Of a stretch of DNA of 64,000 nucleotides, positions 7,930 to 23,611 are shown in pieces. Source of the DNA: Gemmatimonadota bacterium (GTDB lineage Bacteria; Gemmatimonadota; Gemmatimonadetes; JACCXV01; JAHWKZ01); contig JAWVZN010000002.1 in assembly GCA_033722155.1 (NCBI GenBank), positions 17,503-81,502 of the forward strand, given 5' to 3'. Each line of letters opens with the position of its first letter. The first letter of the stretch is position 1. Both the position numbers and the translations under genes were made by a program. The notes under the pieces were generated by a model. The model saw nothing but the letters and a program-made list of their open reading frames with translations. It did not search any database and was not told the DNA's origin.

Positions 7930-9045
7930 TCACAGCGACGGCGCCGGTCGGCCGGTGACGAGGCCGTCGCGGCCGATCGAGGACCACTCGGGATCCTCCA
8001 GGGCGAATCGCGGGACGGGTCCGGCCGGAGAGAAGACGGGGAGCGCCCCCTCGCCGACGTCGCCGTCCGGGGCGAGAAAGAGGGACCACCGATCGGCGAG
8101 TCCGGCCACCATCAGGCCGGCCGCCAGGGTCGGGCCGGGCTCGACGAGGACCCCGGACACGCCCCGTTCGGCCAGATCCGCCGCCACCGCTCCCAGGTCC
8201 AGGCCCCGCCTCGAGACCTCGGTGGGGACCACCTCGACGCCGCGATCCCGCAGCGCCTCGGCCCGCTCGCCGGAGGCGCGACAGTAGATCACGGTCGGGA
8301 CGCGGTCGGAGGTCTCGGCGATCCGGGAGTCGGCGGGGGTACGGAGGTGGGAGTCGAGGACGACCCGGAGGGGCTGCACCTCCGGCCACGGCGCCTCCGC
8401 AGGGTCGTCCGGCGCCCCGTCGGGAGGCGGCCACTCCCGCACCGTCAGCTCGGGATCGTCGATCATGACGGTGCCGACGCCCACCAGCACCGCCCGGTGG
8501 CGACGCCGCATCCGGTGGACGTGGGCGCGGGCCTCGGGGGAGGTGATCCACCCGGGGCCGCCGACCCCGCGGGTGAGGTGGCCGGAGAGGGTCTGGGCGG
8601 TCTTCAGGTGGAAGAGGGGCCGCCCCGTCCTCTCGAGGTGGAGCCACGCTTCGACGAGCCTCATGGCGGCGGCCTCCTCGACGCCGGCCACGACCTCCAC
8701 GCCGACCTTCCGGAGCCGCTCGGCGCCTCCCCTCCCGGCGTGGGGATCGGGGAGGGCGTAGACGAGGCGGGCGATTCCCGCCTCCGCGAGCGCGTCGGCA
8801 CAGGGAGGAGTGCGACCGTGATGGGCGCACGGCTCCAGGGTGACCACCGCGGTCGCTCCCCGGACGTCGCGTCCCTCCCGGGCGGCGGCCTCGAGCGCCA
8901 CCGCCTCCGCGTGGGGCTCGCCCGCCCGGGCGTGCCACCCCTCCCCGAGCACCTCCCCCTCGCCGTCCACGAGCACGCACCCGACCATCGGGTTGGGAGA
9001 GGTGGCGCCGCCCCCCCGCTCGGCCAGCGCGAGGGCGCGCCGCAT
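7930..9045 (-). CDS. ribD: Bifunctional diaminohydroxyphosphoribosylaminopyrimidine deaminase / 5-amino-6-(5-phosphoribosylamino)uracil reductase
   Basis: Trimmed from ORF 7930..9474 to MRRALALAERGGGATSPNPMVGCVLV…HAEAVAL…TLEPCAHHGRTPPC…; the ATG at 9043-9045 was confirmed and the upstream 143 codons are antisense junk. Confidence 0.85.
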   Translation of the reverse strand: MRRALALAERGGGATSPNPMVGCVLVDGEGEVLGEGWHARAGEPHAEAVALEAAAREGRDVRGATAVVTLEPCAHHGRTPPCADALAEAGIARLVYALPDPHAGRGGAERLRKVGVEVVAGVEEAAAMRLVEAWLHLERTGRPLFHLKTAQTLSGHLTRGVGGPGWITSPEARAHVHRMRRRHRAVLVGVGTVMIDDPELTVREWPPPDGAPDDPAEAPWPEVQPLRVVLDSHLRTPADSRIAETSDRVPTVIYCRASGERAEALRDRGVEVVPTEVSRRGLDLGAVAADLAERGVSGVLVEPGPTLAAGLMVAGLADRWSLFLAPDGDVGEGALPVFSPAGPVPRFALEDPEWSSIGRDGLVTGRPAPSL

Positions 9046-9071
9046 GGGAGCCCGCCACCGAGCGGCGCGGC

Positions 9072-10163
9072 TCACCCGGACACCTTCCACGCGACTCCTT
9101 CGCCCTCGATCACGGACCCGATCCGCGCCACCCGTTCGCCGGTCTCCGCCATCCCCGCGGTGATCCGATCGACCGCGGATGGGGCGACGACGAGACAGAA
9201 GCCGATCCCCATGTTGAACACCCGGACCATCTCCCCGTCGCCGATCCCGCCGGCCTCCGCCAGCCACCGGAAGACGGGCGGCACCTCCCACGCGGAGGGA
9301 TCGATCCGGGCGCCGAGCCCCTCGGGGAGGGCCCGCGGAAGGTTCCCGGAGAAGCCACCGCCGGTGACGTGGGCGGCGGCGCGGAGGTCGGGGTCGTCGA
9401 GCAGGGGCTCGACGGCGTCCCGATAGGAGCGGTGAACCGCGAGCAGGACGTCGGCCCAGGAGGCCTCCCCCCACGGAACGGTCTCCTCCAGGCGCTTCCC
9501 TTCCCGTTCCAGCACGATCTTGCGCGCCAGGGTGTAGCCGTTGGTGTGGAGGCCGCTGGACGGCAGCGCGAGGATCGCGTCACCGGGCTCGGCGCGTCCC
9601 CAACGCTCGAGCCGGCCACGGGGGGCGATCCCGACCGCGAAGCCGGCGAGGTCGTAGCCGTCCGGGGGATACACGCCGGGCATCTCGGCGGTCTCGCCGC
9701 CGAGGAGCGGGATCCGGTTGGCCCGGCAGCCGCGGGCGAAGCCTTCCACCAGCGCGAGGGTCGTCTGCTCGCGGAGCTCGCCGGCCGCGATGTAGTCCAG
9801 GAAGAGCAGCGGGCGCGCTCCCGAGGCGAGGAGGTCGTTCACGCAGTGGTTCACCAGGTCCTCTCCGATGGTGTCGTGGCGGTCGGCGGCCTGCGCCACC
9901 AGCACCTTCGTCCCCACGCCGTCGGTCGTCGCCACCAGGACCGGCTCCGCCTCCGGGAGGGAGCCGATGTCGAAACACCCCCCGAAGCCTCCCGGGCCCC
10001 CGAGGACTTCCGGGCCGAGCGTTTCCTCGACCAGGGCGCCGAGCCTCCGCTTCAGGCGGTCGGCCACGGCGAGATCCACGCCGGCCTCGGCGTAGGCCGG
10101 CGCGTCTCCTCCGTCCGCCGGGCCCCTCCCGGCCGGCCGGGGCTCGCCGGGAGCCTCAGGCAT
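9072..10163 (-). CDS. purM: Phosphoribosylformylglycinamidine cyclo-ligase (AIR synthetase)
   Basis: 363-aa ORF: …VATTDGVGTKVLVA…GGETAEMPGVY…. The N-terminal ~25 aa may be an extension, so the exact start is uncertain. Confidence 0.8.
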   Translation of the reverse strand: MPEAPGEPRPAGRGPADGGDAPAYAEAGVDLAVADRLKRRLGALVEETLGPEVLGGPGGFGGCFDIGSLPEAEPVLVATTDGVGTKVLVAQAADRHDTIGEDLVNHCVNDLLASGARPLLFLDYIAAGELREQTTLALVEGFARGCRANRIPLLGGETAEMPGVYPPDGYDLAGFAVGIAPRGRLERWGRAEPGDAILALPSSGLHTNGYTLARKIVLEREGKRLEETVPWGEASWADVLLAVHRSYRDAVEPLLDDPDLRAAAHVTGGGFSGNLPRALPEGLGARIDPSAWEVPPVFRWLAEAGGIGDGEMVRVFNMGIGFCLVVAPSAVDRITAGMAETGERVARIGSVIEGEGVAWKVSG

Positions 10164-11082
10164 CGAGGAGCAGGGGCACGTGGTCGAAGTGGGTGAGCTC
10201 CTTGAACTCGAGGAAGCGCCGCTCGATGTCGCGGGGGGAGAGCGAGGCCAGCCGGTCGACGGAGAACGACTCGCAGCAGAACGATCCCATCGCGGAGCCG
10301 TAGATCGTGGCCCGGCGCAGGCCCTCCGTGGTGAGGTCCTCGAGCGAGGCCAGGGTGCCGAGGAAGCCCCCGGCGAAGGCGTCGCCGGCGCCGGTGGGGT
10401 CCACGATGTTCTCCAGCGGCAGCCCCGGAACCGCGAAGCGGCCGTCCGGGCCGAAGGTGATCGCCCCGTGCTCCCCCTTCTTCACCACGACGAGGCGCGG
10501 GCCCCAGGAGAGGATCCTCTCGCCGGCGAGGCGCAGGTTGGGCTCTTCGGCCAGCTCGCGGGCTTCGGAGTCGTTGATCAGCACGAGCTCCACCCGTTCG
10601 ATCACCTCCCGCAGCTTCCGGGGGGTGTTCTCGATCCAGTAGTTCATCGTGTCGAGCGACGTCGTGCGCGGCTCCGCCACCTGCTCGAGCACCCGCAGCT
10701 GCAGTCCCGGATCGATGTTGGCGAGGAACACGTGATCGGTGTCGCGGAAGGAGTCGGGGATCTCGGGATCGAAGTCGGCGAAGACGTTCAGATCCGTGTA
10801 CAGGGTCTCGCGGGCGTTGAAGTCGAACCCGTAGCGGCCGCCCCACCGGAAGGTCCTCCCCTCGGCCGTCTGGAGGCCGGAGAGGTCGAGACCGTGGGAG
10901 ACGAGCAGCTCGACATGCTCGTCGGGAAAGTCGGTGCCCACGACGCCCACGACGCGGACGTCGGTGAAGTAGGAGGCCGCCAGGCCGAAGTAGACGGCGG
11001 CGCCCCCGAGGGCGTCCTCGCGGGACCCGAACGGCGTCTCCACGTCGTCGAGCGCGACCGATCCTACCACGAGAAGCGACAT
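10156..11082 (-). CDS. PfkB-family carbohydrate/nucleoside kinase (ribokinase-like)
   Basis: 308-aa ORF: MSLLVVGSVALDDVETPFG…VDPTGAGDAFAGGFL…; it has an 8-nt overlap with the purM start. Confidence 0.75.
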   Translation of the reverse strand: MSLLVVGSVALDDVETPFGSREDALGGAAVYFGLAASYFTDVRVVGVVGTDFPDEHVELLVSHGLDLSGLQTAEGRTFRWGGRYGFDFNARETLYTDLNVFADFDPEIPDSFRDTDHVFLANIDPGLQLRVLEQVAEPRTTSLDTMNYWIENTPRKLREVIERVELVLINDSEARELAEEPNLRLAGERILSWGPRLVVVKKGEHGAITFGPDGRFAVPGLPLENIVDPTGAGDAFAGGFLGTLASLEDLTTEGLRRATIYGSAMGSFCCESFSVDRLASLSPRDIERRFLEFKELTHFDHVPLLLDA

Positions 11083-11116
11083 CGCGGGGCTCCCGGCTCG
11101 AGAGGGGCGGTGGGGG

Positions 11117-12775
11117 TCACATCGACTCCGGCGCGTCGAGGCCGAGGAGGCCGAGAAGCTCGCGAATCGCCCGCTGCGTGGCCCTGGCGAGCGCCAGCCG
11201 GGCGCGGGCGAGGCCCTCGTCGTCGACCAGGAATCGTCGGGCGTGGTACCACAGGTGGAAGCGCCGGGCGAGTTCCTCCAGGACGTCGGTGATCCGATGG
11301 GGCTCGAGCGCGTCGGCGGCGTCGGCGACCACCTCGGGGAGCTCGTCGAGGGCCCGCATCAGGGCGAGCTCCTCCTCGGCGACGAGCCGGTCGAGGGTGT
11401 CGGGGAGCCCCCCGCTCCCCGCCGGGTCCAGGTCGGGACGCTCCAGGCGGTCGAACACGCCGGCGATCCGGGCGTGGGCGTACTGCACGTAGTAGACGGG
11501 GTTCTCCTCGCTCTGGCGCCGGGCCAGGTCGAGGTCGAAGGTCATGTGGGTGTCCCCCTTGCGCATCAGCAGGAAGTAGCGCGTCACGTCGACCCCGATG
11601 TCGTCCAGCAGCTCCCGCAGGGTCACCATCCGGTCCGCCCGGGTGGAGAGGCGCACCTCGCGGCCCTCCTCCACCAGGCTGATCTGCTGATAGATCACGG
11701 GCCTCAGCCACCCCGGAGGCACGCCCAGCGCCCGCAGCGCGGCCTCCATGCGCACGGCGTAGCTGTGATGATCGGCGCCCCACACGTCGACGGCGACGTC
11801 GAAGCCCCGCTCCCGCTTGTCGCGGTGGTAGGCGATGTCGGGCAACAGGTAGGTGGGGCGTCCGGTGGACTTCACGAGAACCCGGTCGTCGGTGTCGCCG
11901 TAGGCGCTGGCCCGGAACCACGTCGCTCCCTCGTCCTCGTACACGACCCCGTTCTCCCGGAGCGCATCGAGGGTCGCCTCGATCCGGCCGTTCTCGTAGA
12001 GAGAGGACTCGTTGAACCACCGGTCGAACTCCACCCGGAAGCGGGCGAGATCCTCCCGGATCCACCGCTTGATCCGCTCTCCCGCGAAGTCGCGGAAGAC
12101 CGCGAGGCAATCCTCCGGCGGAACGTCCCGGTAGGCCTCGCCCCGCTCCTCCGCCATCTCGTCGGCCAGCTCTCCGATGTAGTCTCCCCGGTACCCTTCC
12201 TCGGGAAACGGATAATCGGGATCCCACCGGCGCTGGTAGCGGGCGTGGACGGAGGCGCCCAGGAGGTCCATCTGGCGCCCGGCGTCGTTGAAGTAGTACT
12301 CCCGCACCACGTCGGCGCCCTGCGATTCGTAGAGGGCGGCGATCGCGTCGCCGAGGGCGGCGTTGCGGGCGTGGCCGACGTGGAGCGGCCCGGTCGGGTT
12401 GGAGCTGACGAACTCCACGTTCACCCGGAGCTCCGACAGCCGGTCCGAACCGAGATAGCGGGAGGGGTCGTCGAGGATCCTCTCGACCACCCCCCGCAGC
12501 CAGGCGGGAGCCATCGTGGCGTTGAGGAAGCCCGGGCCGGCGACGTCGAGCCCGGCCCACCGGTCGGGATCGAGCTCGAGCGCCCCGGCGAGCTCGTCGG
12601 CGATCTCGCGCGGGGAGCGTCCGAGGCGGCCGGCGAGCTGCATCGCCACCGGGCTCGCCCAGTCCCCGTGATCGGGATCCCTGGGACGCTCGACGAGGAT
12701 CTCCTCTACGGCCCACCCCCGCTCGGCGCAGGCGGTCGCGATCGCGGCGCGCAGCTCCTCCCGCGGGCGGATCAC
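11117..12775 (-). CDS. argS: Arginine--tRNA ligase
   Basis: Trimmed from ORF 11117..13351. The HIGH motif …SSNPTGPLHVGHARNAALGD… is present and the protein ends …APESM. The GTG start at 12773-12775 overlaps the upstream TGA (GTGA), giving 552 aa. Confidence 0.9.
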   Translation of the reverse strand: MIRPREELRAAIATACAERGWAVEEILVERPRDPDHGDWASPVAMQLAGRLGRSPREIADELAGALELDPDRWAGLDVAGPGFLNATMAPAWLRGVVERILDDPSRYLGSDRLSELRVNVEFVSSNPTGPLHVGHARNAALGDAIAALYESQGADVVREYYFNDAGRQMDLLGASVHARYQRRWDPDYPFPEEGYRGDYIGELADEMAEERGEAYRDVPPEDCLAVFRDFAGERIKRWIREDLARFRVEFDRWFNESSLYENGRIEATLDALRENGVVYEDEGATWFRASAYGDTDDRVLVKSTGRPTYLLPDIAYHRDKRERGFDVAVDVWGADHHSYAVRMEAALRALGVPPGWLRPVIYQQISLVEEGREVRLSTRADRMVTLRELLDDIGVDVTRYFLLMRKGDTHMTFDLDLARRQSEENPVYYVQYAHARIAGVFDRLERPDLDPAGSGGLPDTLDRLVAEEELALMRALDELPEVVADAADALEPHRITDVLEELARRFHLWYHARRFLVDDEGLARARLALARATQRAIRELLGLLGLDAPESM

Positions 12776-13098
12776 GATCCGTTCGCCCCGTCCCCGCCGC
12801 CTCCGTCGGCTGCGTTCTTCCCCTCCGTTTCGGACGATCCGGAGTCCTTCGCGTCCGACGGGCCGCCCGACGCCTTCTTCCTCTCGGACTCCGCCTTCGA
12901 CCGGTACTCCTCGCTCCGGTAGTCGGTGGCGTAGAACCCCTCGCCCTTGAAGAGGAAGCCGGCGCCTCCCGAGATCCGGCGGCGCGCGCGCTTCCCGCAG
13001 GAGGGGCATTTCCGGGTACGGGCGCGGTCGTCCATCTTCTTCAGGAACCGCTCGAACTCGTGTCCGCAGGACGGGCATTCGTACACGTAGGTGGGCAT
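12772..13098 (-). CDS. FmdB-family putative regulatory zinc-ribbon protein with an acidic Gly/Ser-rich tail, 108 aa
   Basis: C-terminal part of ORF 12772..14817: MPTYVYECPSCGHEFERFLKKMDDRARTRKCPSCG…. The ATG at 13096-13098 was confirmed, with a GGAG SD upstream. Confidence 0.7.
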   Translation of the reverse strand: MPTYVYECPSCGHEFERFLKKMDDRARTRKCPSCGKRARRRISGGAGFLFKGEGFYATDYRSEEYRSKAESERKKASGGPSDAKDSGSSETEGKNAADGGGGDGANGS

Positions 13099-13181
13099 GG
13101 GCGTCGCTCCGTCTCCCGGGGCGGAATGCAGGAACGGGACCCCAATATCGCCGGCGAGCGGCCCGATACCAAGGGGGAGGG

Positions 13182-14855
13182 TCAGCCGGCGGTGGCGTCG
13201 GTCCAGGTCCCGGCGACCTCGCGGAAGACGTCGGCGATCTCGCCCACGGTGGCCCCGGAGGCGCACGCGTCGCGGATGACCGGCAGCAGGTTCTCCTCGC
13301 CTCTCGCCGCCTCGCCGAGCCGCTCCAGGGCGGCCTCGACCACCGCCGCATCCCGCCGCTCGCGCCACTCCGAGAGGCGACTTCGCTGCCGAGCGGCCGG
13401 TTCCTCGACGTCGGGGATCTCGATCCGCGCTTCGGGATCGCCGGCCGCCTCCCACCGGTTCACCCCGACCACCACCTCCTCCCCCTCCTCGACCCTCCGC
13501 TGGTGCGCATACGCCTCGCGCTCGATCTCGTCGCGAAAGAAGCCGGACTCGATGGCGGCGACCGATCCCCCCATCCCGTCGATCCGCTCGAGGTAATCGC
13601 GGATCCGCCCCTCGAGATCGGCGGTCAGCCGCTCCACGTACCACGATCCTCCCAGCGGATCGGCGGTGGCGGAGGCGCCGCTCTCGTGGGCGAGGATCTG
13701 CTGCGTCCTCAGCGCCAGCCGCGCGCTCTCTTCGCTCGGCAGCGACAGCGCCTCGTCGTAGGCGTTCGTGTGGAGGCTCTGGGTGCCCCCGAGCACGGCG
13801 GCGAGCGCCTGGACGGTCACCCGCACCACGTTGTTCAGCGGCTGCTGCGCCGTGAGGGTCGCGCCGTCGGTCTGGGCGTGGAACCGGAGGCGGGCCGCGG
13901 CGGGATCGGTCGCGCCGAAGCGGTCCAGCACGAGCTCCGACCAGATCCGGCGCGCCGCGCGGAACTTGGCGACCTCCTCGAAGAGATCGTTGTGGACCCC
14001 GAAGAAGAAGGAGAGGCGCCCCGCGAAGCGGTCGACGTCGAGCCCCGCCTCGCGGGCGGCCTCCACGTAGCAGATCGCGTTGGCGAAGGTGAACGCCACC
14101 TCCTGGGCGGCGGTCGCGCCCGCCTCGCGGATGTGGTAGCCGGAAATCGATATCGGGTTCCAGCGAGGGGTGCGCCGGGCGCACCACGCGAACGAGTCGA
14201 CGATCAGCCGGAGGCTGAACTCCGGCGGATAGATGTAGGTGCCGCGGGCCACGTACTCCTTGAGCACGTCGTTCTGGATCGTGCCGCGGAGCCGCTCCAG
14301 CTCCCCCCCCTTCTCCTCGGCGACCAGGGTGTAGAGGGAGAGCAGGGTGGTCGCGGTGGCGTTGATCGTCATCGAGGTGGAGACCTCGTCGAGCGGAATC
14401 CCCTCGAACAGGCGACGCATGTCGTCGAGGGTGTCGATCGCGACCCCCACACGGCCTACCTCGGCCTCGGCCCGGGGGTGGTCGGAGTCGTATCCCATCT
14501 GGGTGGGCAGGTCGAAGGCCGTGGAGAGGCCGGTCTGTCCCTGTTCGAGCAAATAGCGGAACCGGGCGTTCGTCTCGGCGGCGGTTCCGTAACCGGCGTA
14601 CTGGCGCATCGTCCAGAGACGCCCCCGGTACATGTTCGGATGGATGCCGCGGGTGTAGGGGGGCGAGCCCGGGAAGCCGATCTCCTCCACGGCGTCGACG
14701 TCGGCCACGTCCTCGGGAGCGTAGCACGGCTGGATCGCGTGCCCGCTCGTGGTCTCGAACCGCGCCTCCCGCTCCGGATGTCGCTCCCGGTGCGGATCCA
14801 GGGCCTCCGCCTCCCACTCCTCCTTGGAGCGCGGGCGCCGATCGCCGTCGCTCAT
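13182..14855 (-). CDS. Methylmalonyl-CoA mutase family catalytic subunit (substrate-binding barrel only, no B12-binding domain), 557 aa
   Basis: Trimmed from ORF 13182..15299 to [19 protein letters not shown]…[60 protein letters not shown]…. The ATG overlaps the upstream TGA (ATGA). Confidence 0.85.
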
Positions 14856-15412
14856 GGCTCCTCCCCTCCCTCCTCCCCGTCGGCGGGCGGCTCGATCCGG
14901 CAGATCGCGGCGTCGCGCTCGACGGCGTCTCCCTTCGAGACGGACACCTCCCGCACCACGCCGCCGATCGGCGCGGAGATCTCGTTCTCCATCTTCATCG
15001 CCTCGATGATCGCGATTCCGTCGCCCGGCGCCACCTCGTCGCCCTCGCCCACCTCCAGGGCGAGGACGAGCCCGGGCATCGGCGCGCGGACCTCCGTACC
15101 GGCCCCGGCGGCTCCTCCCCGGATCCCGAGCTCGTCGAGCCTGTGCTCCGATTCGGTCGTCACCCGGAGCGGGTGGGTCGAGCCGGCGAGCCGCAGGGTG
15201 CCGGCGCCGTCGGTGGACGGCTCCCACAGGAACCGGGTCGGTCGCCGGTCCGCCCACACCCGGTGCGCTCCGGGGCCCGGGACGAGCCGCCAGGTCCACC
15301 GCTCCCCATCGGCGGCGACCTCCGCGACCCAGGCTTCCTCCTCCGGCCGGAGGCGCACCCGCCAGCTCTTCCCGTCGGGCGCACTCACCCAGTAGGTGCG
15401 CTGCCCCCTCAC
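14852..15412 (-). CDS. Biotinyl/lipoyl-attachment domain protein (BCCP-like) with a Trp-rich N-terminal domain of unknown function, ~186 aa
   Basis: C-terminal part of ORF 14852..16645: …[49 protein letters not shown]… (AMKM biotinylation motif). The GTG start at 15410-15412 overlaps the rlmD TGA (GTGA). Confidence 0.7.
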
Positions 15413-16764
15413 CGTGCCCTCTCGCGCTCCAGGACCATCACCGCCTCCACGTGGGAGGTCTGCGGGAACAGGTCGAAGGCCCTCGTGGCGAGGATCTTCC
15501 ACTCCGGTCCGAGCCGGCGGACGTCGCGGGCGAGCGTGGTGGGATCGCAGGAAACGTACACGATCCGCCGCGCGGAGGAGCGGTGAATGGACGCCAGAGC
15601 CCGGCGGGGGACGCCCGCGCGGGGCGGGTTCAGCACCACGGCCGCGGGGCGGGGACGCCCCCAGTCGATCCGGTCGGCGGGAAGCTCGAGGACGTGGGCG
15701 CGCTCCTCGTCCACCCGGGCGGTGTTGGCCCGGAGGTCGCTGGCGGCGCCGGGGTGGGCCTCCACCGCCGTGACGCGGGCCCCCCGCTCCAGCAGGTCGC
15801 ACGCGGTGATCCCCACCCCGGCGTAGCCGTCCACGATCCGGTCGCCCTCGCGGGGGTCGAGCGCTTCCAGGACCGCGTCGTAGAGGACCGTGGCGGACTC
15901 GAGATCCGCCTGCAGGAAGCTGTCGAACCCCACCCGCAGGGGGCGGCCGCGGTACTCGAAGGAGGTCTCGAGCCTGGGAGCCGAGCCGGAGAGTTCGAGC
16001 GTGCCGCGATCGGAGTCCCATCGCCCCCAGGTGGCGGGGACGCCGGCCTCGGCGGCGCACGCTCCGGCGATCTCCCGCGCGCCGGCGCAATCCTCCGCGA
16101 AGACGCCGGCCTGGAGGATCTCGTCCGGAAGCACCCGCACGGCGAGGCGGCCCCGGGACGGTGGACCGGGCTCCCCCGGGGAGCGCGCGAGGGCGCCCAG
16201 CCCGGACCCGAGCCCGCGGACCAGGGGGGCGATCGCCCGGTTGCCCCGTTCCGCGAAGATCGGGCAGGCGGGCACCTCCACGATCGCGTCCGGATCGTGC
16301 GCGGCGTGGAACCCCACCACGGGGAGCTCCTCCTCGAGGCGCCAGCTGAGGACGACCCGGTCCCGGTAGTGCCACGGCGTGGCGGCGGCCTCGCAGACCG
16401 GGGCGTCGGCGAGCGGTCGGTCGGCGATGCGCTCGAAGGCATCGCTCACCGCGCGCGCTTTCGCGTCCCGCTGGGCGACAGGATCGAGATGCTGGAGCTG
16501 GCAGCCGCCGCAGGTGCCGAAGACGGGGCAGCCGGGCTCCACGCGGCGGGGTCCGGGCTCGAGGACCTCGTCCAGCCGGGCCCTCGCCCAGGTCGGATTC
16601 CGCTCGGTCACCGTGGCCCGCACCCGGTCGCCGGGTGCGGTCCACGGGACGAACAGGACGAAGCCGTCCACCCGCGCCACTCCGTCTCCCCCGTAGGCGA
16701 GCCGATCGACGCCCGCCTCGACGACCTCGCCCTCGCGGGGACCGCCCTCGGGCGCGCCGCTCAT
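15409..16764 (-). CDS. rlmD: 23S rRNA (uracil-C5)-methyltransferase RlmD/RumA family, 451 aa
   Basis: C-terminal part of ORF 15409..17586: MSGAPEGG… with a TRAM domain, the Fe-S cysteines [14 protein letters not shown] and a methyltransferase core (…[10 protein letters not shown]…LNPPRAG…). The ATG at 16762-16764 was confirmed. Confidence 0.8.
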
Positions 16765-18269
16765 CGGAGGCCCGTCCAGCGGGCGCCCCGCCGCCACGCG
16801 TCGCGTCCCCCGGACGGCGCCGGACGGGGACGCGACGCGCCGGGCGGCCCGAGATGGGTCCGCAGCGCGGCCAGCGCGGCGGCCAGTGGAGCGTCGGCGT
16901 CCCTTCGCTGCTCCATCCGCTCGACCACGCGATCGGCGTGGCGCTCGAGCCACGCGGTGTGGGTCCGCCCCTCGCGCACCGCGGGATCCTCCAGCAGGGC
17001 GCGGTGGAACGCGACGTTGGTGGTGAGTCCTCCGACGATCGTCTCCTCCAGCGCCCGGGCCTGGCGGGCGAGGGCCTCCTCGCGGGTCCGGCCCCACACG
17101 ATGCACTTGGCGAGGAGCGGGTCGAAGTGGGACGTCACCTCCACCCCGGCGGCGATGCCGCTGTCGAACCGGACTCCGGGCCCGGCCGGCTCGCGGTAGG
17201 CGGTCACGGTGCCGGTGTCCGGCAGGAACCCGCCGGCCGGATCCTCGGCCGCGATCCGGCACTCGACGGCGTGGCCGCGCAGGGAGACGTCCTCCTGGGT
17301 GATCGGCAGGGGCTCGCCGGCGGCGATCGCCAGCTGGAGGGCCACCAGGTCGAGTCCCGTGACCCACTCGGTCACCGGGTGCTCCACCTGGAGCCGGGTG
17401 TTCATCTCCAGGAACCAGAACGATCCGTCGGGCGCCAGCAGGAACTCCACCGTGCCGGCGCCGACGTAGCCGACCGCCTCCGCCGCCCGGACCGCCACCG
17501 CCCCCATCTCGCTCCGCGTCTCCTCGTCGAGGCCGGGAGCGGGGGCCTCCTCGAGGATCTTCTGGTGGCGGCGCTGCAGGGAGCACTCCCGCTCCCCGAG
17601 GTGGATCGTCCTCCCGTCGCCGTCGGCGACGACCTGGATCTCGACGTGGCGGGCCTCGGGAAGGTACGTCTCGAGATAGAGGGCGGGATCACCGAAGGCG
17701 CTCTTCGCCTCGCCGGACGCCCCCCTGAAGGCCGCAGCCAGCTCCTCGGGCCCGCTCACGACCCGCATGCCCTTCCCCCCCCCGCCGGCCGCCGCCTTCA
17801 GGAGGACGGGGTAGCCGATCTCCTCCGCGCGCCGCTCGGCCTCCCCGGCGTCGCCGACCGCGTCCACCGAGCCCGGGATCACCGGCACCCCGCTCCGCTC
17901 CATGGTGCGACGGGCGGCGGTCTTCTCGCCCATCGCCCGGATCGCGTCCGCGGGCGGGCCGATCCACGTGAGCCCGGCGTCGGAGACGGCCCGGGCGAAC
18001 TCCGCGTTCTCCGCGAGGAAGCCGTATCCGGGATGGACCGCGTCGGCCTCGAGCGCCCGGGCGGCGTCGATCAGGGACGCGATCGCCAGATAGGCCCGCC
18101 GGGGATCCTCCGCGAGGATCCCCAGGGCGCGATCGCACGCCCACACGTGGGGCGCGTCGCGGTCGACCTCCGCGTAGACGGCCGCGCTGCCGATCCCGGC
18201 CTCCCGGCACGCCCGCGCGATCCGCACCGCGATCTCCCCACGGTTGGCGATCAGCACCCGCCGGATCAT
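16761..18269 (-). CDS. accC: Biotin carboxylase (acetyl/propionyl-CoA carboxylase BC subunit), 502 aa
   Basis: ORF: MIRRVLIANRGEIAVRIARACREAGI…YPVLLKAAAGGGGKGMRVV…EMNTRLQVEHPVTE…. Its stop overlaps the rlmD start (ATGA). Confidence 0.9.
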   Translation of the reverse strand: MIRRVLIANRGEIAVRIARACREAGIGSAAVYAEVDRDAPHVWACDRALGILAEDPRRAYLAIASLIDAARALEADAVHPGYGFLAENAEFARAVSDAGLTWIGPPADAIRAMGEKTAARRTMERSGVPVIPGSVDAVGDAGEAERRAEEIGYPVLLKAAAGGGGKGMRVVSGPEELAAAFRGASGEAKSAFGDPALYLETYLPEARHVEIQVVADGDGRTIHLGERECSLQRRHQKILEEAPAPGLDEETRSEMGAVAVRAAEAVGYVGAGTVEFLLAPDGSFWFLEMNTRLQVEHPVTEWVTGLDLVALQLAIAAGEPLPITQEDVSLRGHAVECRIAAEDPAGGFLPDTGTVTAYREPAGPGVRFDSGIAAGVEVTSHFDPLLAKCIVWGRTREEALARQARALEETIVGGLTTNVAFHRALLEDPAVREGRTHTAWLERHADRVVERMEQRRDADAPLAAALAALRTHLGPPGASRPRPAPSGGRDAWRRGARWTGLR

Positions 18270-18290
18270 GCTAGGGCCCGGTCCGGATCC

Positions 18291-19835
18291 TCACAGCGGG
18301 ATGTTCCCGTGCTTCTTCTCGGGGTTCGCGTCCCGCTTCGTCGCCAGCGCCGCCAGGCCCGCGACCAACCGCGGGCGGGTGTCGGCGGGATCGATCACGG
18401 CGTCGACGTATCCCCGCTCGGCGGCGATGTAGGGGTGGGCGAAACGCTCGCGAAACTCCTCGGTGCGCTCCTCGATCACCCGCTCGGCGTCGTCGGAGTC
18501 GGCGATCTCCTTCTTCCACAGGATCTCGACCGCGCCCTTGGGACCCATGACGGCGATCTCGGCCGACGGCCACGCGAGGTTGAGGTCGCCGCGGATGTGC
18601 TTCGAGCTCATCACGTCGTAAGCGCCGCCGTAGGCCTTTCGCAGGATGACCGTGAGCTTGGGCACCGTCGCCTCGCAGTAGGCATACAGCAGCTTGGCCC
18701 CGTGGCGGATGATCCCCGCCCACTCCTGGCTCGTGCCGGGCAGGAACCCCGGGACGTCCACGAAGGTGACCAGCGGCACGTTGAAGGCGTCGCAGAACCG
18801 GACGAACCGGGCGCCCTTGATCGAGGCGTCGATGTCGAGCACGCCGGCGAGCACGGACGGCTGGTTCGCGACCACCCCGACCGAGCGGCCGTCCAGCCGG
18901 GCGAACCCGACGACGATGTTCCGCGCGAACCGCTCCTGCACCTCCAGGAACGACCCCCGGTCCATCACCTCCCCGATCACGTCGTGCACGTCGTACGGCT
19001 TGTTCGGGTTCTCGGGAACCACGCCCCGCAGGGCGGGTTCGACCCGGTCCGGGTCGTCGTCCGGCTCGACCGCGGGCGGATCCTCCGCGTTGTTCGAGGG
19101 AAGGTAGGAGAGCAGGCGCCGGATCCCGTCGAGGCACGCCGCCTCGTCGGGAAAGGCGAAGTGGCCCACGCCGCTGTCCGAGGCGTGGACGGCGGCCCCG
19201 CCCAGATCCTCGAAGGAGACCTCCTCGTGGGTGACGGTCTTCACCACGTTCGGCCCCGTCACGAACATGTAGCTGGTCCCCTCCACCAGGCAGACGAAAT
19301 CGGTGATCGCCGGCGAGTACACGGCGCCTCCGGCGCACGGGCCGAGGATCGCGCTGATCTGGGGGACGACCCCGCTGGCGAGCGTGTTGCGCAGGAAGAT
19401 CTCGGCGTAGCCGCCCAGGGAGGCCACGCCCTCCTGGATCCGGGCGCCGCCGGAGTCGTTGAGCCCGATCACCGGAGCCCCGACCTTCGTCGCCAGGTCG
19501 ATCACCTTGCAGATCTTCTCGGCGTGCGCCTCCGAGAGCGAGCCGCCGAAGACGGTGAAGTCCTGGCTGAACACGCAGACGGTGCGGCCGTCGATCGTCC
19601 CGTGACCGGTGACGACGCCGTCGCCGGGGATCTTCCGCTCCTCGAGCCCGAACTCGCGGGCCCGGTGGGTGACGAACATGTCCAGCTCCACGAACGACTC
19701 GGGATCGAGCAGAAGGTCGAGCCTCTCGCGTGCGGTGAGCTTCCCCTTCTCGTGCTGGGCCTCGATCCGGTCGGGCCCGCCCCCCTGCCGCGCCCGCTCC
19801 TGCCGCTCGCGAAGCTCCTCCAGCCGCTCCTTCAC
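18291..19835 (-). CDS. pccB: Propionyl-CoA carboxylase beta chain / methylmalonyl-CoA carboxyltransferase
   Basis: 514-aa ORF: …[19 protein letters not shown]…[19 protein letters not shown]…[19 protein letters not shown]…. Confidence 0.9.
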
Positions 19836-19848
19836 CCCGTCCCCCTCC

Positions 19849-21594
19849 TCACCACTCCACCGCCTCCGGCTCGGCCGCCTCGATCCGGTGTACCACCACC
19901 GCCCGGCGGATCCCGTCCGGCGTGAACCGGAAGAGCGCCGACGCGCCGCGGTACGGTTCGGTGGCTCCCGGCGACTCCTCGAGCGGGAAGCGCTCGACCG
20001 CCAGCCGGGTGGCGTCGTAGCCCCAGGCCGCGATCCGGTTCGTGGGGGGGCCGCCGTATCGGTCGGCGTACCGCTCGGAGAAGGAGTTCCAGCGGGTCAC
20101 CCGGGGATCCCTGCTGAAGGTGTCGGCGAAGTAGCCGCGCAGGAAGCCTCGCCCCTGTCGGAAGAAGTCGGTGTCGTTCCACGCGTCCGTTCCGAGGGGG
20201 AGGATCGTCCCCAGCTCGAAGAACGCCATCTGGTTGAGGATCCGGAGGGCCTCATCGGGCCGGTTGGTGGACAGGAAGACCCCTTGGGCCTGCGACCGGA
20301 CGATCGCTCCGAGATGCTCGGTGAACTCGGTGGTGCCCGGCCGGTAGTCGCGCCGGATCGCCACCCGTCCCCCCACGCTCGCGACGGCGGAGGCGAACGC
20401 GTCCGCTTGGATCCGTCCGTAGGGGTTGTCCACGGCGAGGATCGCGAGGCGGCGCTTCTCGAGGGTGCGGGCGGCGTACATGCCGATCGTATGCCCGATC
20501 GATCCGTCCAGGGCGTTGACCGTGAAGACGTTGGGGTCGACCTCGAGCAGGTTGGCGTCGGTCGCGGTCGGGCTCACCATGGGAACTCCCTCCTGGCTGG
20601 CGATCCGGGCGGTCCGGAGGGCGATCTCGCTGACCAGGGGACCCAGGATCGCCTGCACCCGATCCCGGCGGGCGAGCGAGCGCACGATCTCGGCGATCGA
20701 GTCCGGATCGCTGGAGGAGAAGCGCACCTCGAGGTCCACCGGGGTCCGGCGACCCTCGTTCACGTCCTCGAGCGCCAGCTCGATCCCCCGCCGGATCTCG
20801 TCGGCGACCCGGGCGAAGCGGCCGTCCTCGGGCGCGATGAACCCGAGCCGGGGCCTTGCTCCCGCGGCGCGCGGACCCGTCTCCGGACCCGCCAGCCTGC
20901 CCGCTTCGGCGATCACCTCGCCGGGAAGGGCGGGCAGCCCGCTCACGCGGCGGGCGAGCTCCCGGGCGCGGGCGGTGTCGCCGTCCGCGTAGGCCCAGCG
21001 CGAGGCCTGAAGGTAGAAGGGGGCCAGGAAGTTGCGCGGGGGGCGGACCCCGACGGCCCGCTCGATGGCCGAGCGGGGGAGGCGGTCGAGCAGGTCGCGG
21101 CTCAGGTCGAGGAACTCCTCGATCCGCTCGGGCGAGGCCTCGCGGATCTCGAGGGCGGCATCGAGGCTCGCCTGGAATTCCCGGACCCCGTACCGGCTGT
21201 TGGCGAGCAACAGGGCCGCGCTCTCCCGGAACGGAAGGACGGAGCCGAGCGACAGGTAGCGGTCGAGTTCGGCGGCCGCGGAGGCGTCCTCGCCGAGCTG
21301 GTAGAGGGTTCGGCCGCGCCAGTAGAGCGCGAGCCCGGAGACCTCGCTGGCGGGATACTCCTCGACCACGCGGGTGAAGAGTTCCAGCGCGGTCTCGTGG
21401 TCGCCGATCCGGGCCGCGTCGACCCCGCGTTCGTAGGCGTCCCTCGCCTCCGCGGCGGCCGCGCGGGTGATCGGAGCGTCGCTCAGGGTCGGGCCGGCGG
21501 GCCCCCGGGCGGAGACGCACCCGATCGCCAGCGCCGCGGCGAGCGTCGCGCTCCACGCCAGACAGGCCGCCGGGTTTCGCCACCGGAAAGGCAC
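19849..21594 (-). CDS. LpoA-like lipoprotein: N-terminal TPR-like region plus C-terminal periplasmic-binding-protein (LivK-like, type 6) domain, ~581 aa
   Basis: Trimmed from ORF 19849..22170. The lipoprotein signal is [26 protein letters not shown]; TPR-like helices follow, then …[25 protein letters not shown]…[30 protein letters not shown]…. No ATG is available, so the GTG at 21592-21594 is assumed. Confidence 0.65.
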
Positions 21595-21623
21595 GGTCCG
21601 CCCCGTGGCCCGTCGAGCGGAGC

Positions 21624-23549
21624 CTACTCTTGGCTCTCCTCTTCTTCCTCGGACGTCTCCTCGCCCGCCAGCTCGGACTTCACCTCGGCGAGGGCGTCGG
21701 CCATCTGGGTGGTGGGGCGCTCCCGGCGCCGACGAGGCCGCTCCGGCTGCGGCGCCGGCTCCTCTGGGATCTCCCCCCGCTCGCGATGGCCCGGAATGTC
21801 GATCACGGAGAGCACGATTCGACGGTTCTCGGGATCGGACTCGATCACCTTCAGGACGAGCGTGTCGCCCTCGTCGAATTTGTCGGACGGCGCGTCGAGG
21901 TTCCGGTAGCCGAGCTGGGAGATCGGGACGAACCCCTCGACCTCTCCCTCGAGGTCGACGACGACGCCCTTGTCGAGCAGGCGGATGATCTCCCCCTCCG
22001 TCTCCACCCCGACCGCGTACTTCTCGGCGAGCTTGGGCCAGGGATTCTCCTTCAGGTCCTTGATCGACAGGGAGATCCGCTTGTTCTCGGTGTCGATGTT
22101 CAGGATCTCCACCTTCACCGTCTCCCCCTTGCGGACCACCTCGCTGGGATGGTGGATCCGGCGGGTCCACGACATGTCGCTGATGTGGACCAGGCCGTCG
22201 ATCCCCTCCTCGATCTCCACGAAGGCGCCGAAGCTCGTGAGGTTCCGGACCTTTCCGGAGATGACCGAGCCCGGCGGGTACTTCTCCGCCAGCGTCTCCC
22301 AGGGATCGTCCTCGATCTGCTTCATGCCGAGGGAGATCTTCTCCTCCTCCTCGTTCACGTTGAGGACGACCGCCTCGATGATGTCGCCGATCGACACCAC
22401 CTTGGACGGGTGCTTGATGTGCCGGGTCCAGCTCATCTCGCTGATGTGGACCAGCCCCTCGACCCCCTTCTCGAGCTCGACGAAGGCGCCGTAGTTCGTG
22501 ATGGAGACGACGCGGCCGTGCACCCGCGAGCCGACCGGGTACTTCTCGGTCACGTTGTCCCAGGGGTAGGGCTGGAGCTGCTTCAGCCCGAGGGAGATAC
22601 GGTTGTTCTCGAGGTCGAGGTCCAGGATCTTCACCTCGAGCTCGTCACCGATCGACACCAGCTCCGAGGGATGCCCGACGCGGCCCCACGACATGTCGGT
22701 GATGTGGAGCAGGCCGTCGGCCCCGCCGAGGTCGATGAAGGCCCCGAAGTCGGTGATGTTCTTCACCACGCCCTTGCGGACCTGGCCGACCGCGATCTCG
22801 TCCAGCAGCCGCTCGCGCTTCTGCTCGCGGATCTGCTCGAGGATCATCCGCCGGCTCACCACGATGTTCCGGCGACGCTTGTTGAGCTTGATGATCTTGA
22901 ACTCCATCGTCTGGCCGATCAGGGCGTCGATGTCCGGCACCCGGCGCAGAGCGATCTGGCTTCCGGGCAGGAAGGCGTCCACGCCGAACAGGTCGACGAT
23001 CACTCCGCCCTTGATCTTGCGGGCCAGCTGCCCCTGGACGATCTCGCCGGAGTCGTAGGCCTGGCGGATCTTGTCCCACACCTTGTAGAAATCGGCCTTC
23101 TTCTTCGACAGGACGACCCGGCCGTCCTCGTCTTCCAGGTTCTCGAGGAAGACGTCCACCTCGGCCCCGACCTCCTTGGAGTCGGTCGGCTTGAACTCCT
23201 CGATCGGAACGACCCCCTCGCTCTTGAACCCGACGTCGAGCACGACCACCGCGTCGTCGATGCGCAGGATCCGGCCGGTGACGATCTGGCCTTCCTGGAT
23301 GTCCTGGATCGACTCCTCGTACATGCCGAGGAGCGCCTCGTATTCGTCGAGCGAGTACTCGTCCTCGTCGAACAGGTCGGGGCGGATGTTGACGGCCTCC
23401 GCGGAGCGCTCGATCTCTTCGTCGAGCAGCTCGTCGGCGGGCTTTTCGTCGACCGGGAGCTCTTCCTCCTGCGTGGTCGACTCGTCGGTGAGGGTCGCGG
23501 TGGGGGTGGAGGTCTCGTCCTCCGTCGGGTGGTCCTTGGTGTCGGTCAT
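21624..23549 (-). CDS. rpsA: 30S ribosomal protein S1 (six S1 repeats)
   Basis: 641-aa ORF with repeated S1 motifs (…GRVVSITNYGAFVEL…, …GKVRNLTSFGAFVEI…) and Lys-rich, expression-type codon usage. Confidence 0.95.
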   Translation of the reverse strand: MTDTKDHPTEDETSTPTATLTDESTTQEEELPVDEKPADELLDEEIERSAEAVNIRPDLFDEDEYSLDEYEALLGMYEESIQDIQEGQIVTGRILRIDDAVVVLDVGFKSEGVVPIEEFKPTDSKEVGAEVDVFLENLEDEDGRVVLSKKKADFYKVWDKIRQAYDSGEIVQGQLARKIKGGVIVDLFGVDAFLPGSQIALRRVPDIDALIGQTMEFKIIKLNKRRRNIVVSRRMILEQIREQKRERLLDEIAVGQVRKGVVKNITDFGAFIDLGGADGLLHITDMSWGRVGHPSELVSIGDELEVKILDLDLENNRISLGLKQLQPYPWDNVTEKYPVGSRVHGRVVSITNYGAFVELEKGVEGLVHISEMSWTRHIKHPSKVVSIGDIIEAVVLNVNEEEEKISLGMKQIEDDPWETLAEKYPPGSVISGKVRNLTSFGAFVEIEEGIDGLVHISDMSWTRRIHHPSEVVRKGETVKVEILNIDTENKRISLSIKDLKENPWPKLAEKYAVGVETEGEIIRLLDKGVVVDLEGEVEGFVPISQLGYRNLDAPSDKFDEGDTLVLKVIESDPENRRIVLSVIDIPGHRERGEIPEEPAPQPERPRRRRERPTTQMADALAEVKSELAGEETSEEEEESQE

Positions 23550-23573
23550 GAAGGGGGGGCTTCCGGGTTCCGG

Positions 23574-23611
23574 TCAAAAAGAGCCCCGTTCCGGAGTGAT
23601 CCGGCCCGGGG
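23574..23611 (-). terminator. Intrinsic-terminator-like hairpin plus U-tract between cmk and rpsA (minus-strand RNA)
   Basis: The minus-strand RNA folds as CCCCGGGCCGGAUCACUCCGGAACGGGGC (outer CCCCG/CGGGG stem, inner CCGG/CCGG stem) followed by CUCUUUUUG, leaving about 25 nt before the rpsA ATG. Confidence 0.45.

Follow-up and report, generated by a model that had tools for sequence, protein, structure and literature searches.

In this work, we analyzed a 64-kb window (72% GC) from a Gemmatimonadota metagenome-assembled genome, the window being the whole stretch of DNA studied, and specifically five consecutive minus-strand genes that encode the subunits of a propionyl-CoA carboxylase (PCC), a methyltransferase (MT) and a methylmalonyl-CoA mutase (MCM). 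The results point towards a co-transcribed and translationally coupled housekeeping operon, composed of a three-subunit PCC, the large subunit of an MCM and an unrelated 5-methyluridine (m5U) RNA methyltransferase wedged among them, a reading to which we assign a probability of about 0.75. In particular, (i) the biotin carboxylase (BC) subunit and the biotin carrier, whose genes flank the MT gene, together correspond in sequence to one complete PccA (PCC alpha subunit) divided at the hook loop of the BT domain, the domain of interaction between BC and the carboxyltransferase (CT); (ii) since BC and the carrier, which joins part of the BT domain to the biotin carboxyl carrier protein (BCCP) domain, are encoded by two open reading frames around a 451-amino-acid (aa) gene, the enzyme is a three-subunit PCC variant and not one with a canonical PccA; and (iii) the order BC-MT-carrier is conserved across Gemmatimonadota, an arrangement that is odd but stable and made of well-known parts.

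Direct reading of the sequence bore out the five minus-strand genes proposed in an initial annotation of this DNA, with their positions, lengths and 4-base overlaps (Table 1), and domain searches, with unambiguous assignments, agreed that each of the three carboxylase components (CT, BC and carrier) has a gene of its own. As had been claimed, the gene between BC and carrier is of the RumA/RlmD type and is translationally coupled to both through an ATGA and a GTGA overlap, and the start codon of the carrier is placed at the position used by its orthologues in the family alignment. Between pccB and BC there is a gap of 21 bases. A sequence scan detected no terminator-like sites on the minus strand inside the operon, all the sites found being on the plus strand, and a promoter scan returned nothing, which means little at 72% GC. 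An assembly chimera was rejected, as the same arrangement is present in more than ten independent assemblies. Public annotation holds a 100%-identical copy of the 451-aa MT (P0121, NCBI/ENA), named "TRAM domain-containing protein", and a near-identical 186-aa carrier is also on public record (P0001, 99%).

Table 1 Genes, domains and overlaps of the carboxylase-mutase operon (window coordinates).
Feature	Coordinates	Strand	Length	Evidence or remarks
pccB, CT (beta) subunit of PCC	18291..19835	-	514 aa	Carboxyl_trans, E=1e-199
BC subunit	16761..18269	-	502 aa	Biotin_carb_N, CPSase_L_D2, Biotin_carb_C; BC domain at residues 1-443 plus C-terminal tail
Predicted BC tail (residues ~447-502): Ala-rich BT-domain helix and hook with (S/A)-W-(R/K)-x-x-G-R	16764..16931	-		Alignment of 15 split-type BCs
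Predicted RumA/RlmD-type [4Fe-4S] S-adenosylmethionine (SAM)-dependent RNA uracil-C5 methyltransferase (MT)	15409..16764	-	451 aa	TRAM and tRNA_U5-meth_tr
Biotin carrier (BT-BCCP)	14852..15412	-	186 aa	Biotin_lipoyl at residues 107-173
BT-domain beta-barrel (Trp-rich region, carrier residues 1-~95)	15128..15412	-		Family profile, AlphaFold model, Foldseek
BCCP (biotinyl) domain	14888..15103	-		Biotin_lipoyl, E=9e-18; biotin-attachment lysine K140 (codon 14993-14995) in EAMKMEN
MCM large (substrate-binding) subunit	13182..14855	-	557 aa	MM_CoA_mutase, E=4e-216
ATGA overlap, BC stop / MT start	16761..16764	-		Sequence read directly
GTGA overlap, MT stop / BT-BCCP start	15409..15412	-		Sequence read directly
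ATGA overlap, BT-BCCP stop / mutase start	14852..14855	-		Sequence read directly

The N-terminal half of the carrier, with seven Trp in its first 100 residues, had been described as unlike known BCCP linkers. This description fails, given that a family profile, an AlphaFold model and a Foldseek search all lead to the BT barrel of PCC alpha. Searched alone, the carrier had no Pfam match in its N-terminal half, even at E<=1. Its family comprises over 100 sequence clusters, almost all of them with a length of about 175 aa and, where an organism is named, from Gemmatimonadota; a profile of 38 family members (A1) served as the basis of both the search for relatives and the AlphaFold model. The best solved relatives of the profile were PCC alpha subunits (E about 1e-30): its positions 5-173 align with residues 513-680 of 3N6R_A and its positions 10-174 with residues 564-728 of human PCCA, a stretch that in PCC alpha comprises BCCP and, before it, the C-terminal part of BT, the barrel part of the match covering PCC alpha residues 513-~610. 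The AlphaFold model, with a mean predicted local distance difference test score (pLDDT) of 91.5, shows eight beta-strands (residues 5-86) and a short helix (87-94), both above 90, followed by a low-confidence linker and the BCCP fold; against the PDB, the top Foldseek matches were BT-BCCP fragments of PCC alpha only (6YBQ, 8PN7, 8XL3, 7YBU and 3N6R; E 1e-11 to 1e-9). Besides, the Pfam PCC_BT model (PF18140) matches nine of the 38 carrier relatives (best E=3e-6), as well as the carriers of two Gemmatimonadota loci, L085 and L004. By profile and model, the N-terminal half of the carrier is thus the eight-stranded beta-barrel of the PCC alpha BT domain and not a novel linker, and the Trp-rich region is essentially the ordinary part of PccA that the initial annotation had itself named as its counter-case. 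The remaining half does contain the normal AMKM biotinylation domain noted at the outset, and E137, A138, M139, K140, M141, E142 and N143 are invariant in the carrier family.

In PCC, the BT domain consists of a long helix inside an eight-stranded antiparallel barrel, and a "hook" loop joins the helix to strand 1 (PMC4673880). The candidate for this helix is found at the end of BC. Pfam domains (E 1e-38 to 1e-73) and the NF006367 model (615 bits, cutoff 597) identify this protein, in which the BC domain proper stops at residue 443 of 502; its alignment to the alpha subunit of methylcrotonyl-CoA carboxylase (MCC; 3u9s_A) reaches residue 494, i.e. about 50 residues beyond the BC domain. The tails of 15 split-type BCs all carry an Ala-rich hydrophobic helix (PLAAALAAL here) and, after it and near the C-terminus, a conserved (S/A)-W-(R/K)-x-x-G-R motif. 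Joined together, BC and carrier (688 aa) are colinear with the fused PccA of Alphaproteobacteria (667-670 aa), and the point at which the two meet lies in the hook, the loop that follows the Ala-rich helix. The closest precedent for a domain of this kind built from two chains is two-subunit pyruvate carboxylase, where the BC subunit has at its C-terminus an Ala-rich helix that a barrel of the partner subunits fully encloses, and deletion or mutation of this helix abolishes the holoenzyme (PMC5059739). Because the BC tail helix is colinear with that of PccA and because this precedent exists, we infer that the tail helix inserts in trans into the barrel of the carrier.

The substrate of the carboxylase is presumably propionyl-CoA. 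The best solved relatives of the CT subunit are PCC beta subunits (1VRG, 6YBP_A, 3N6R_B and 1XNY; E about 1e-205 to 1e-218). Three observations would suit an enzyme that is not a dedicated PCC but acts promiscuously on acetyl-CoA and propionyl-CoA (an acyl-CoA carboxylase like those of archaea and actinobacteria) or serves another acyl-CoA: the best solved matches of BC are a biotin carboxylase from Chloroflexus (8hz4_A) and MCC alpha, CT scores 829 bits with TIGR01117, its best NCBIfam model, whose curated cutoff is 999, and many three-subunit enzymes are bifunctional (PMC3199775). However, all the best solved relatives of CT are PCC beta (E about 1e-217), the top matches of the carrier profile are PCC alpha, and the carrier gene is translationally coupled to that of an MCM-type mutase; we thus regard a broader or different specificity as rather unlikely, with a chance that is still appreciable.

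The mutase was said to lack a B12-binding domain, and this was corroborated by the domain search, a motif scan and tblastn. The protein holds a single MM_CoA_mutase domain (PF01642, E=4e-216; TIGR00641, 726 bits), that is, the substrate-binding (beta/alpha)8 barrel. Its best solved match is HcmA, the large subunit of 2-hydroxyisobutyryl-CoA mutase (4R3U, 562 bits vs about 479 bits for classical MCMs). The mutase has Tyr, Ala and Arg (RQ-Y-AG, ST-A-FD and VA-R-GTY) where HcmA has Ile, Asp (Asp117) and Gln, two of these positions being, as we take them, the equivalents of MCM Tyr89 and Arg207. A function as 2-hydroxyisobutyryl-CoA mutase, considered for the best PDB match, was rejected on the basis of these MCM-type active-site residues, and the higher score of HcmA probably reflects a shared lineage of split large subunits. 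The search for the B12-binding subunit and the epimerase that the initial annotation had proposed for the genome was run within the 64-kb window, and neither gene was found there: a DxHxxG motif scan and a tblastn probe detected no B12-binding domain, and probes for epimerase and MeaB, which matched other loci, gave no match in the window. The tblastn B12 probe also found nothing in L001-L004, L013, L023 and L030, and matched seven other loci, which serve as positive control. The B12-binding small subunit and the epimerase are presumed to be encoded elsewhere in the genome. For the large and small subunits of a split MCM, unlinked genes are known in Metallosphaera sedula (Msed_0638 and Msed_2055; Han et al. 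2012, cited in PMC6759758).

As a separate observation, a Zn_ribbon_8 (FmdB-like) gene at window positions 12772-13098 (minus strand), encoding a CxxC...CxxC ribbon and a tail rich in Ser, Gly, Glu and Lys, follows the mutase in every mutase-bearing Gemmatimonadota locus (L001, L003, L004, L086 and L087) and is missing from the two loci that lack the mutase (L085 and L088); its product may be a small mutase-linked protein.

The initial annotation had considered that the location of the MT gene may indicate a moonlighting or misassigned function. The MT scores above the cutoff of the RlmD equivalog model TIGR00479 (rumA; 213.9 bits vs 183.55), fails the narrower PRK13168 model (201 bits vs 458) and carries a TRAM domain (PF01938) at residues 11-64 (39 bits vs cutoff 21). 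Aligned with E. coli RumA (1UWV), it conserves (i) the cluster motif P-x-C-P-x-F-G-x-C-G-G-C-Q-x-Q-H and the fourth Cys (CPI), so that C79, C85, C88 and C167 align with the [4Fe-4S] cysteines, (ii) the F-x-Q, the SAM motif D-x-x-x-G-x-G (D312-x-Y-x-G-x-G in the MT) and PPRAG, and (iii) the catalytic Cys in VYVSC(N/D)P-x-TLARD (C406, VSCDP) and the H-(L/V)-E base (E440). In 23 members of its clade, down to 35% identity, the four cluster cysteines are invariant together with F283, Q285, D312, G316, G318, P380, P381, R382, G384, C406 and E440. No extra domain or clade-specific insertion is present (451 aa vs 433 aa in RumA). As all the hallmarks of m5U RNA methyltransferases are present and clade-invariant, a different chemistry seems unlikely, and the protein is most likely a genuine RumA/RlmD-type Fe-S m5U RNA methyltransferase with 23S rRNA as predicted target. 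An equally distant homologue (35% identity) is located next to mutS2, in an unrelated context (L089), which argues that the Gemmatimonadota MTs do not form an unusually divergent branch. Neither does the MT evolve faster than its operon partners, since its identity between the window and L001/L003 (54-57%) lies between the values of BC (63-65%) and carrier (43-50%), those of pccB and mutase being 81% and 75%. Recent horizontal transfer was rejected, given that the GC content at third codon positions (GC3) of the MT gene, 0.92, equals that of the neighbouring genes and the insertion is common to Longimicrobiales and Gemmatimonadales.

Gene order was compared in 80 genome loci with carrier relatives, onto which the five proteins were mapped with their reading frames checked. 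The scan was seeded by the EAMKMEN peptide only and limited to at most 600 stretches; what it returned was mostly from Bacteroidota and included few Gemmatimonadota, which makes it an outgroup sample and not a census. A fused PccA was found in Alphaproteobacteria and in one Gaiellaceae genome. Where PccA is split, the BT-BCCP gene comes immediately after BC in Anaerolineales (L039), Caldilineaceae (L073), Zixibacteria (L057) and Ignavibacteriales (L033), and Flavobacteriia have the order BT-BCCP, BC, pccB; no MT was detected in the flanks of any of these outgroup loci, fused or split. Among Gemmatimonadota-type loci with sufficient flanking sequence, the triad BC-MT-carrier stands intact in the window and in nine others: L001, L003, L013, L023 (Longimicrobiales), L030 (Gemmatimonadales), L085, L086, L087 and L088; the short contig L002 shows MT-carrier-mutase, and the 4-base overlaps on both sides of the MT recur in several lineages. 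The flanks vary more. Between pccB and BC there are about 1.1-1.4 kb in L023, L030 and L085, with one extra gene in the latter; in L086, restriction-modification-like and HEPN genes stand upstream in place of pccB with the triad intact; and in L085 and L088 rplM-rpsI-rpsB-tsf, instead of the mutase, lies downstream of the triad. Only one lineage breaks it: in L004 (2456-7863) a five-gene phosphate-type cassette of about 5.5 kb, encoded on the opposite strand and composed of a response regulator, a histidine kinase, Porin_O_P and two PBP_like_2 genes, separates MT and carrier and leaves BC and MT together, and the same porin gene lies upstream of the carrier of L051 (96-2472).

Two of these surroundings are worth describing by themselves. 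Directly upstream of BC, L086 (1-4436) encodes a protein of 1279 aa in which an Eco57I/MmeI-type methyltransferase-nuclease is joined to a nucleotidyltransferase domain; a HEPN protein and a small gene of unknown kind come next, and the whole resembles a defence island inserted beside the triad. The rplM-rpsI-rpsB-tsf(-pyrH-frr) genes of L085 (7842-12002) and L088 (9078-11254) constitute a second arrangement of carboxylase genes by translation genes.

Two histories may account for the position of the MT gene at the junction. Its insertion exactly between the two PccA halves, the existence of fused PccA in Alphaproteobacteria and Gaiellaceae and an order (pccB, pccA halves, mcm) resembling that of operons in other phyla (L039 and L014) would suit an MT gene that itself made the split by entering a fused pccA of the Gemmatimonadota ancestor. 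Nevertheless, L039, L073, L057 and L033 have the same split point, with BC ending after the helix and the W-x-x-x-G-R motif and the carrier starting at strand 1, without any insert, and Flavobacteriia have it in reversed gene order. Furthermore, published phylogeny takes the three-subunit form of CoA carboxylases to be the ancestral one and the fusion of BC with BCCP to be derived (PMC3199775), which makes a single early insertion of the MT into a pre-existing junction the most economical explanation. We consider a split created by the MT gene improbable.

The stability of the triad raises the question of whether the MT is functionally tied to the carboxylase, as an assembly or scaffold factor, as a regulator of the operon mRNA or as an element connecting ribosome modification with propionate or branched-chain catabolism, with selection keeping its position. 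The triad is indeed the stablest core of the neighbourhood, intact in the window and the nine loci, including those in which pccB (L086) or the mutase (L085 and L088) is not next to it any more, and the recurrence of the flanking overlaps in several lineages is in agreement with such a tie. On the other hand, the strict conservation of every m5U hallmark, the RNA-binding TRAM domain and the Fe-S cluster among them, and the lack of any added domain or clade-specific insertion speak for an ordinary RNA enzyme; split PCCs of other phyla have the same junction without MT; the L004/L051 lineage tolerates the 5.5-kb opposite-strand cassette between MT and carrier; the stability needs no functional link, as the MT gene is enclosed by two genes that cannot be parted; and our literature search found no MT-carboxylase link. 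A functional tie is in our opinion quite unlikely, and we see no evidence for moonlighting. Its strongest form, a RumA-like protein that is a dedicated carboxylase accessory held between BC and BCCP by selection since the origin of the phylum, appears less probable still; if true, the accessory MT might act as a chaperone or bridge for a BT domain assembled in trans, might set the BC:BCCP stoichiometry through binding of the operon mRNA by its Fe-S/TRAM module, or might couple ribosome modification to propionate flux.

Under the preferred reading of a housekeeping operon with an unrelated MT gene, one transcript would be translated by ribosomes passing from gene to gene through the stop/start overlaps, yielding PccB, BC with its tail, MT, BT-BCCP and mutase. 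The BC tail helix, placed in the carrier barrel, would rebuild the BT domain and tie BC to BCCP, and the hook would contact the PccB hexamer, docking BC and BCCP on it. Biotinyl-K140 would then shuttle CO2 from BC to CT, giving methylmalonyl-CoA, to be epimerised and rearranged by the mutase to succinyl-CoA with partners encoded elsewhere, while the MT would work separately, on RNA. Its gene may have entered the BC|BT-BCCP junction once, early in the phylum, and may have been kept because its removal risks parting two genes that need joint expression; we infer, in other words, the neutral history of a trapped housekeeping gene.

Several points weigh against this interpretation. First, PF18140 does not match the window carrier even at E<=1, and the BT assignment draws on the family profile and the model. 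In addition, a single-sequence AlphaFold prediction of the tail-plus-carrier fusion, run without alignment, had a pLDDT of 40.6, too low to speak for or against packing of the helix in the barrel, the tail being still predicted as helical. Besides, a triad stabler than its flanks is also what a functional link between MT and carboxylase predicts. Finally, the preference for propionyl-CoA over acetyl-CoA or other acyl-CoAs is read from homology and the adjacent mutase.

Our searches of the literature on rlmD with biotin carboxylase and on Gemmatimonadota PCC/MCM returned no description of the BC-MT-carrier order. This order adds a minor new detail on synteny rather than a new system, and it reveals no new enzyme chemistry. 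It can nonetheless be of use in several ways. The Gemmatimonadota proteins of about 175 aa annotated as "biotin/lipoyl-containing" or "hypothetical" are the BT-BCCP half of PccA, and the "acetyl-CoA carboxylase biotin carboxylase" of about 500 aa beside the carrier would hold what is left of the BT domain. The pair may be a natural system in which two chains build the PCC BT domain, in analogy to two-subunit pyruvate carboxylase. The nested MT gene illustrates how an unrelated gene may be frozen in place by its neighbours and offers a synteny marker for the phylum. Around it, the operon is embedded in a long single-strand housekeeping block with short gaps (window ~9000-23600, minus strand; also L001, L003 and L087), comprising rpsA, a TPR/PBP_6 protein, pccB, BC, MT, BT-BCCP, mutase, Zn ribbon, argS, a pfkB-family kinase and purM, which is common to distant Gemmatimonadota and to which some lineages add rplM and rpsB. 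A 1096-aa plus-strand frame across BC and pccB (window 16635-19925), like other long antisense open reading frames, is a by-product of 72% GC and not a gene.

Most parts of the operon have counterparts in well-described systems. The mutase resembles the split MCM of M. sedula and HcmA/HcmB (4R3U) in its large subunit of about 555 aa, with the substrate barrel only and the B12 subunit separate and not necessarily encoded nearby; in contrast to HcmA/HcmB, its active-site residues are MCM-type and not of the 2-hydroxyisobutyryl-CoA mutase type. The MT shares with E. coli RumA/RlmD (1UWV and 2BH2), the m5U methyltransferase of 23S rRNA U1939, the TRAM domain, the CxxxxxCxxC...C ligands, FxQ, DxxxGxG, PPRAG, VSC(N/D)P and the Glu base. 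It differs in that the match extends over two separate stretches, with MT residues ~191-281 unaligned, and in that its gene is embedded in a carboxylase operon.

The carboxylase can be compared with the alpha6beta6 PCC (3N6R; human PCC, 7YBU), whose alpha chain has the same linear succession of BC, BT (helix and hook, here predicted, and eight-stranded barrel) and AMKM-bearing BCCP, and to whose beta subunit the window CT is about 60-70% similar. However, the alpha chain is here divided at the hook loop into two polypeptides, and BT would therefore have to form in trans; the barrel is Trp-rich and, in the window protein, too divergent for Pfam PCC_BT; and an unrelated gene of 1.36 kb parts the two alpha halves. 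Assembly of that kind is known from the two-subunit pyruvate carboxylase of Methylobacillus flagellatus (5KS8; PMC5059739), whose BC subunit likewise ends in a helix of small residues (Ala-rich), there buried in a barrel from the BCCP-bearing polypeptide and here predicted to be so. In 5KS8, two beta subunits give four strands each to the barrel, and the pyruvate CT domain belongs to the partner, whereas in our case a single polypeptide would give all eight strands and CT is the separate PccB. Also comparable are the three-subunit acyl-CoA carboxylases of Chloroflexota, Zixibacteria, Ignavibacteriota and Bacteroidota, with the same sizes (BC ~500, BCCP ~165-185 and CT ~515 aa) and the same split point. 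The AccC/AccB/PccB enzyme of Sulfolobales is presumably a three-subunit acyl-CoA carboxylase of the same kind. In the loci of the four former phyla BC directly adjoins the carrier gene, in either order, whereas an MT between the two was found in Gemmatimonadota loci only.

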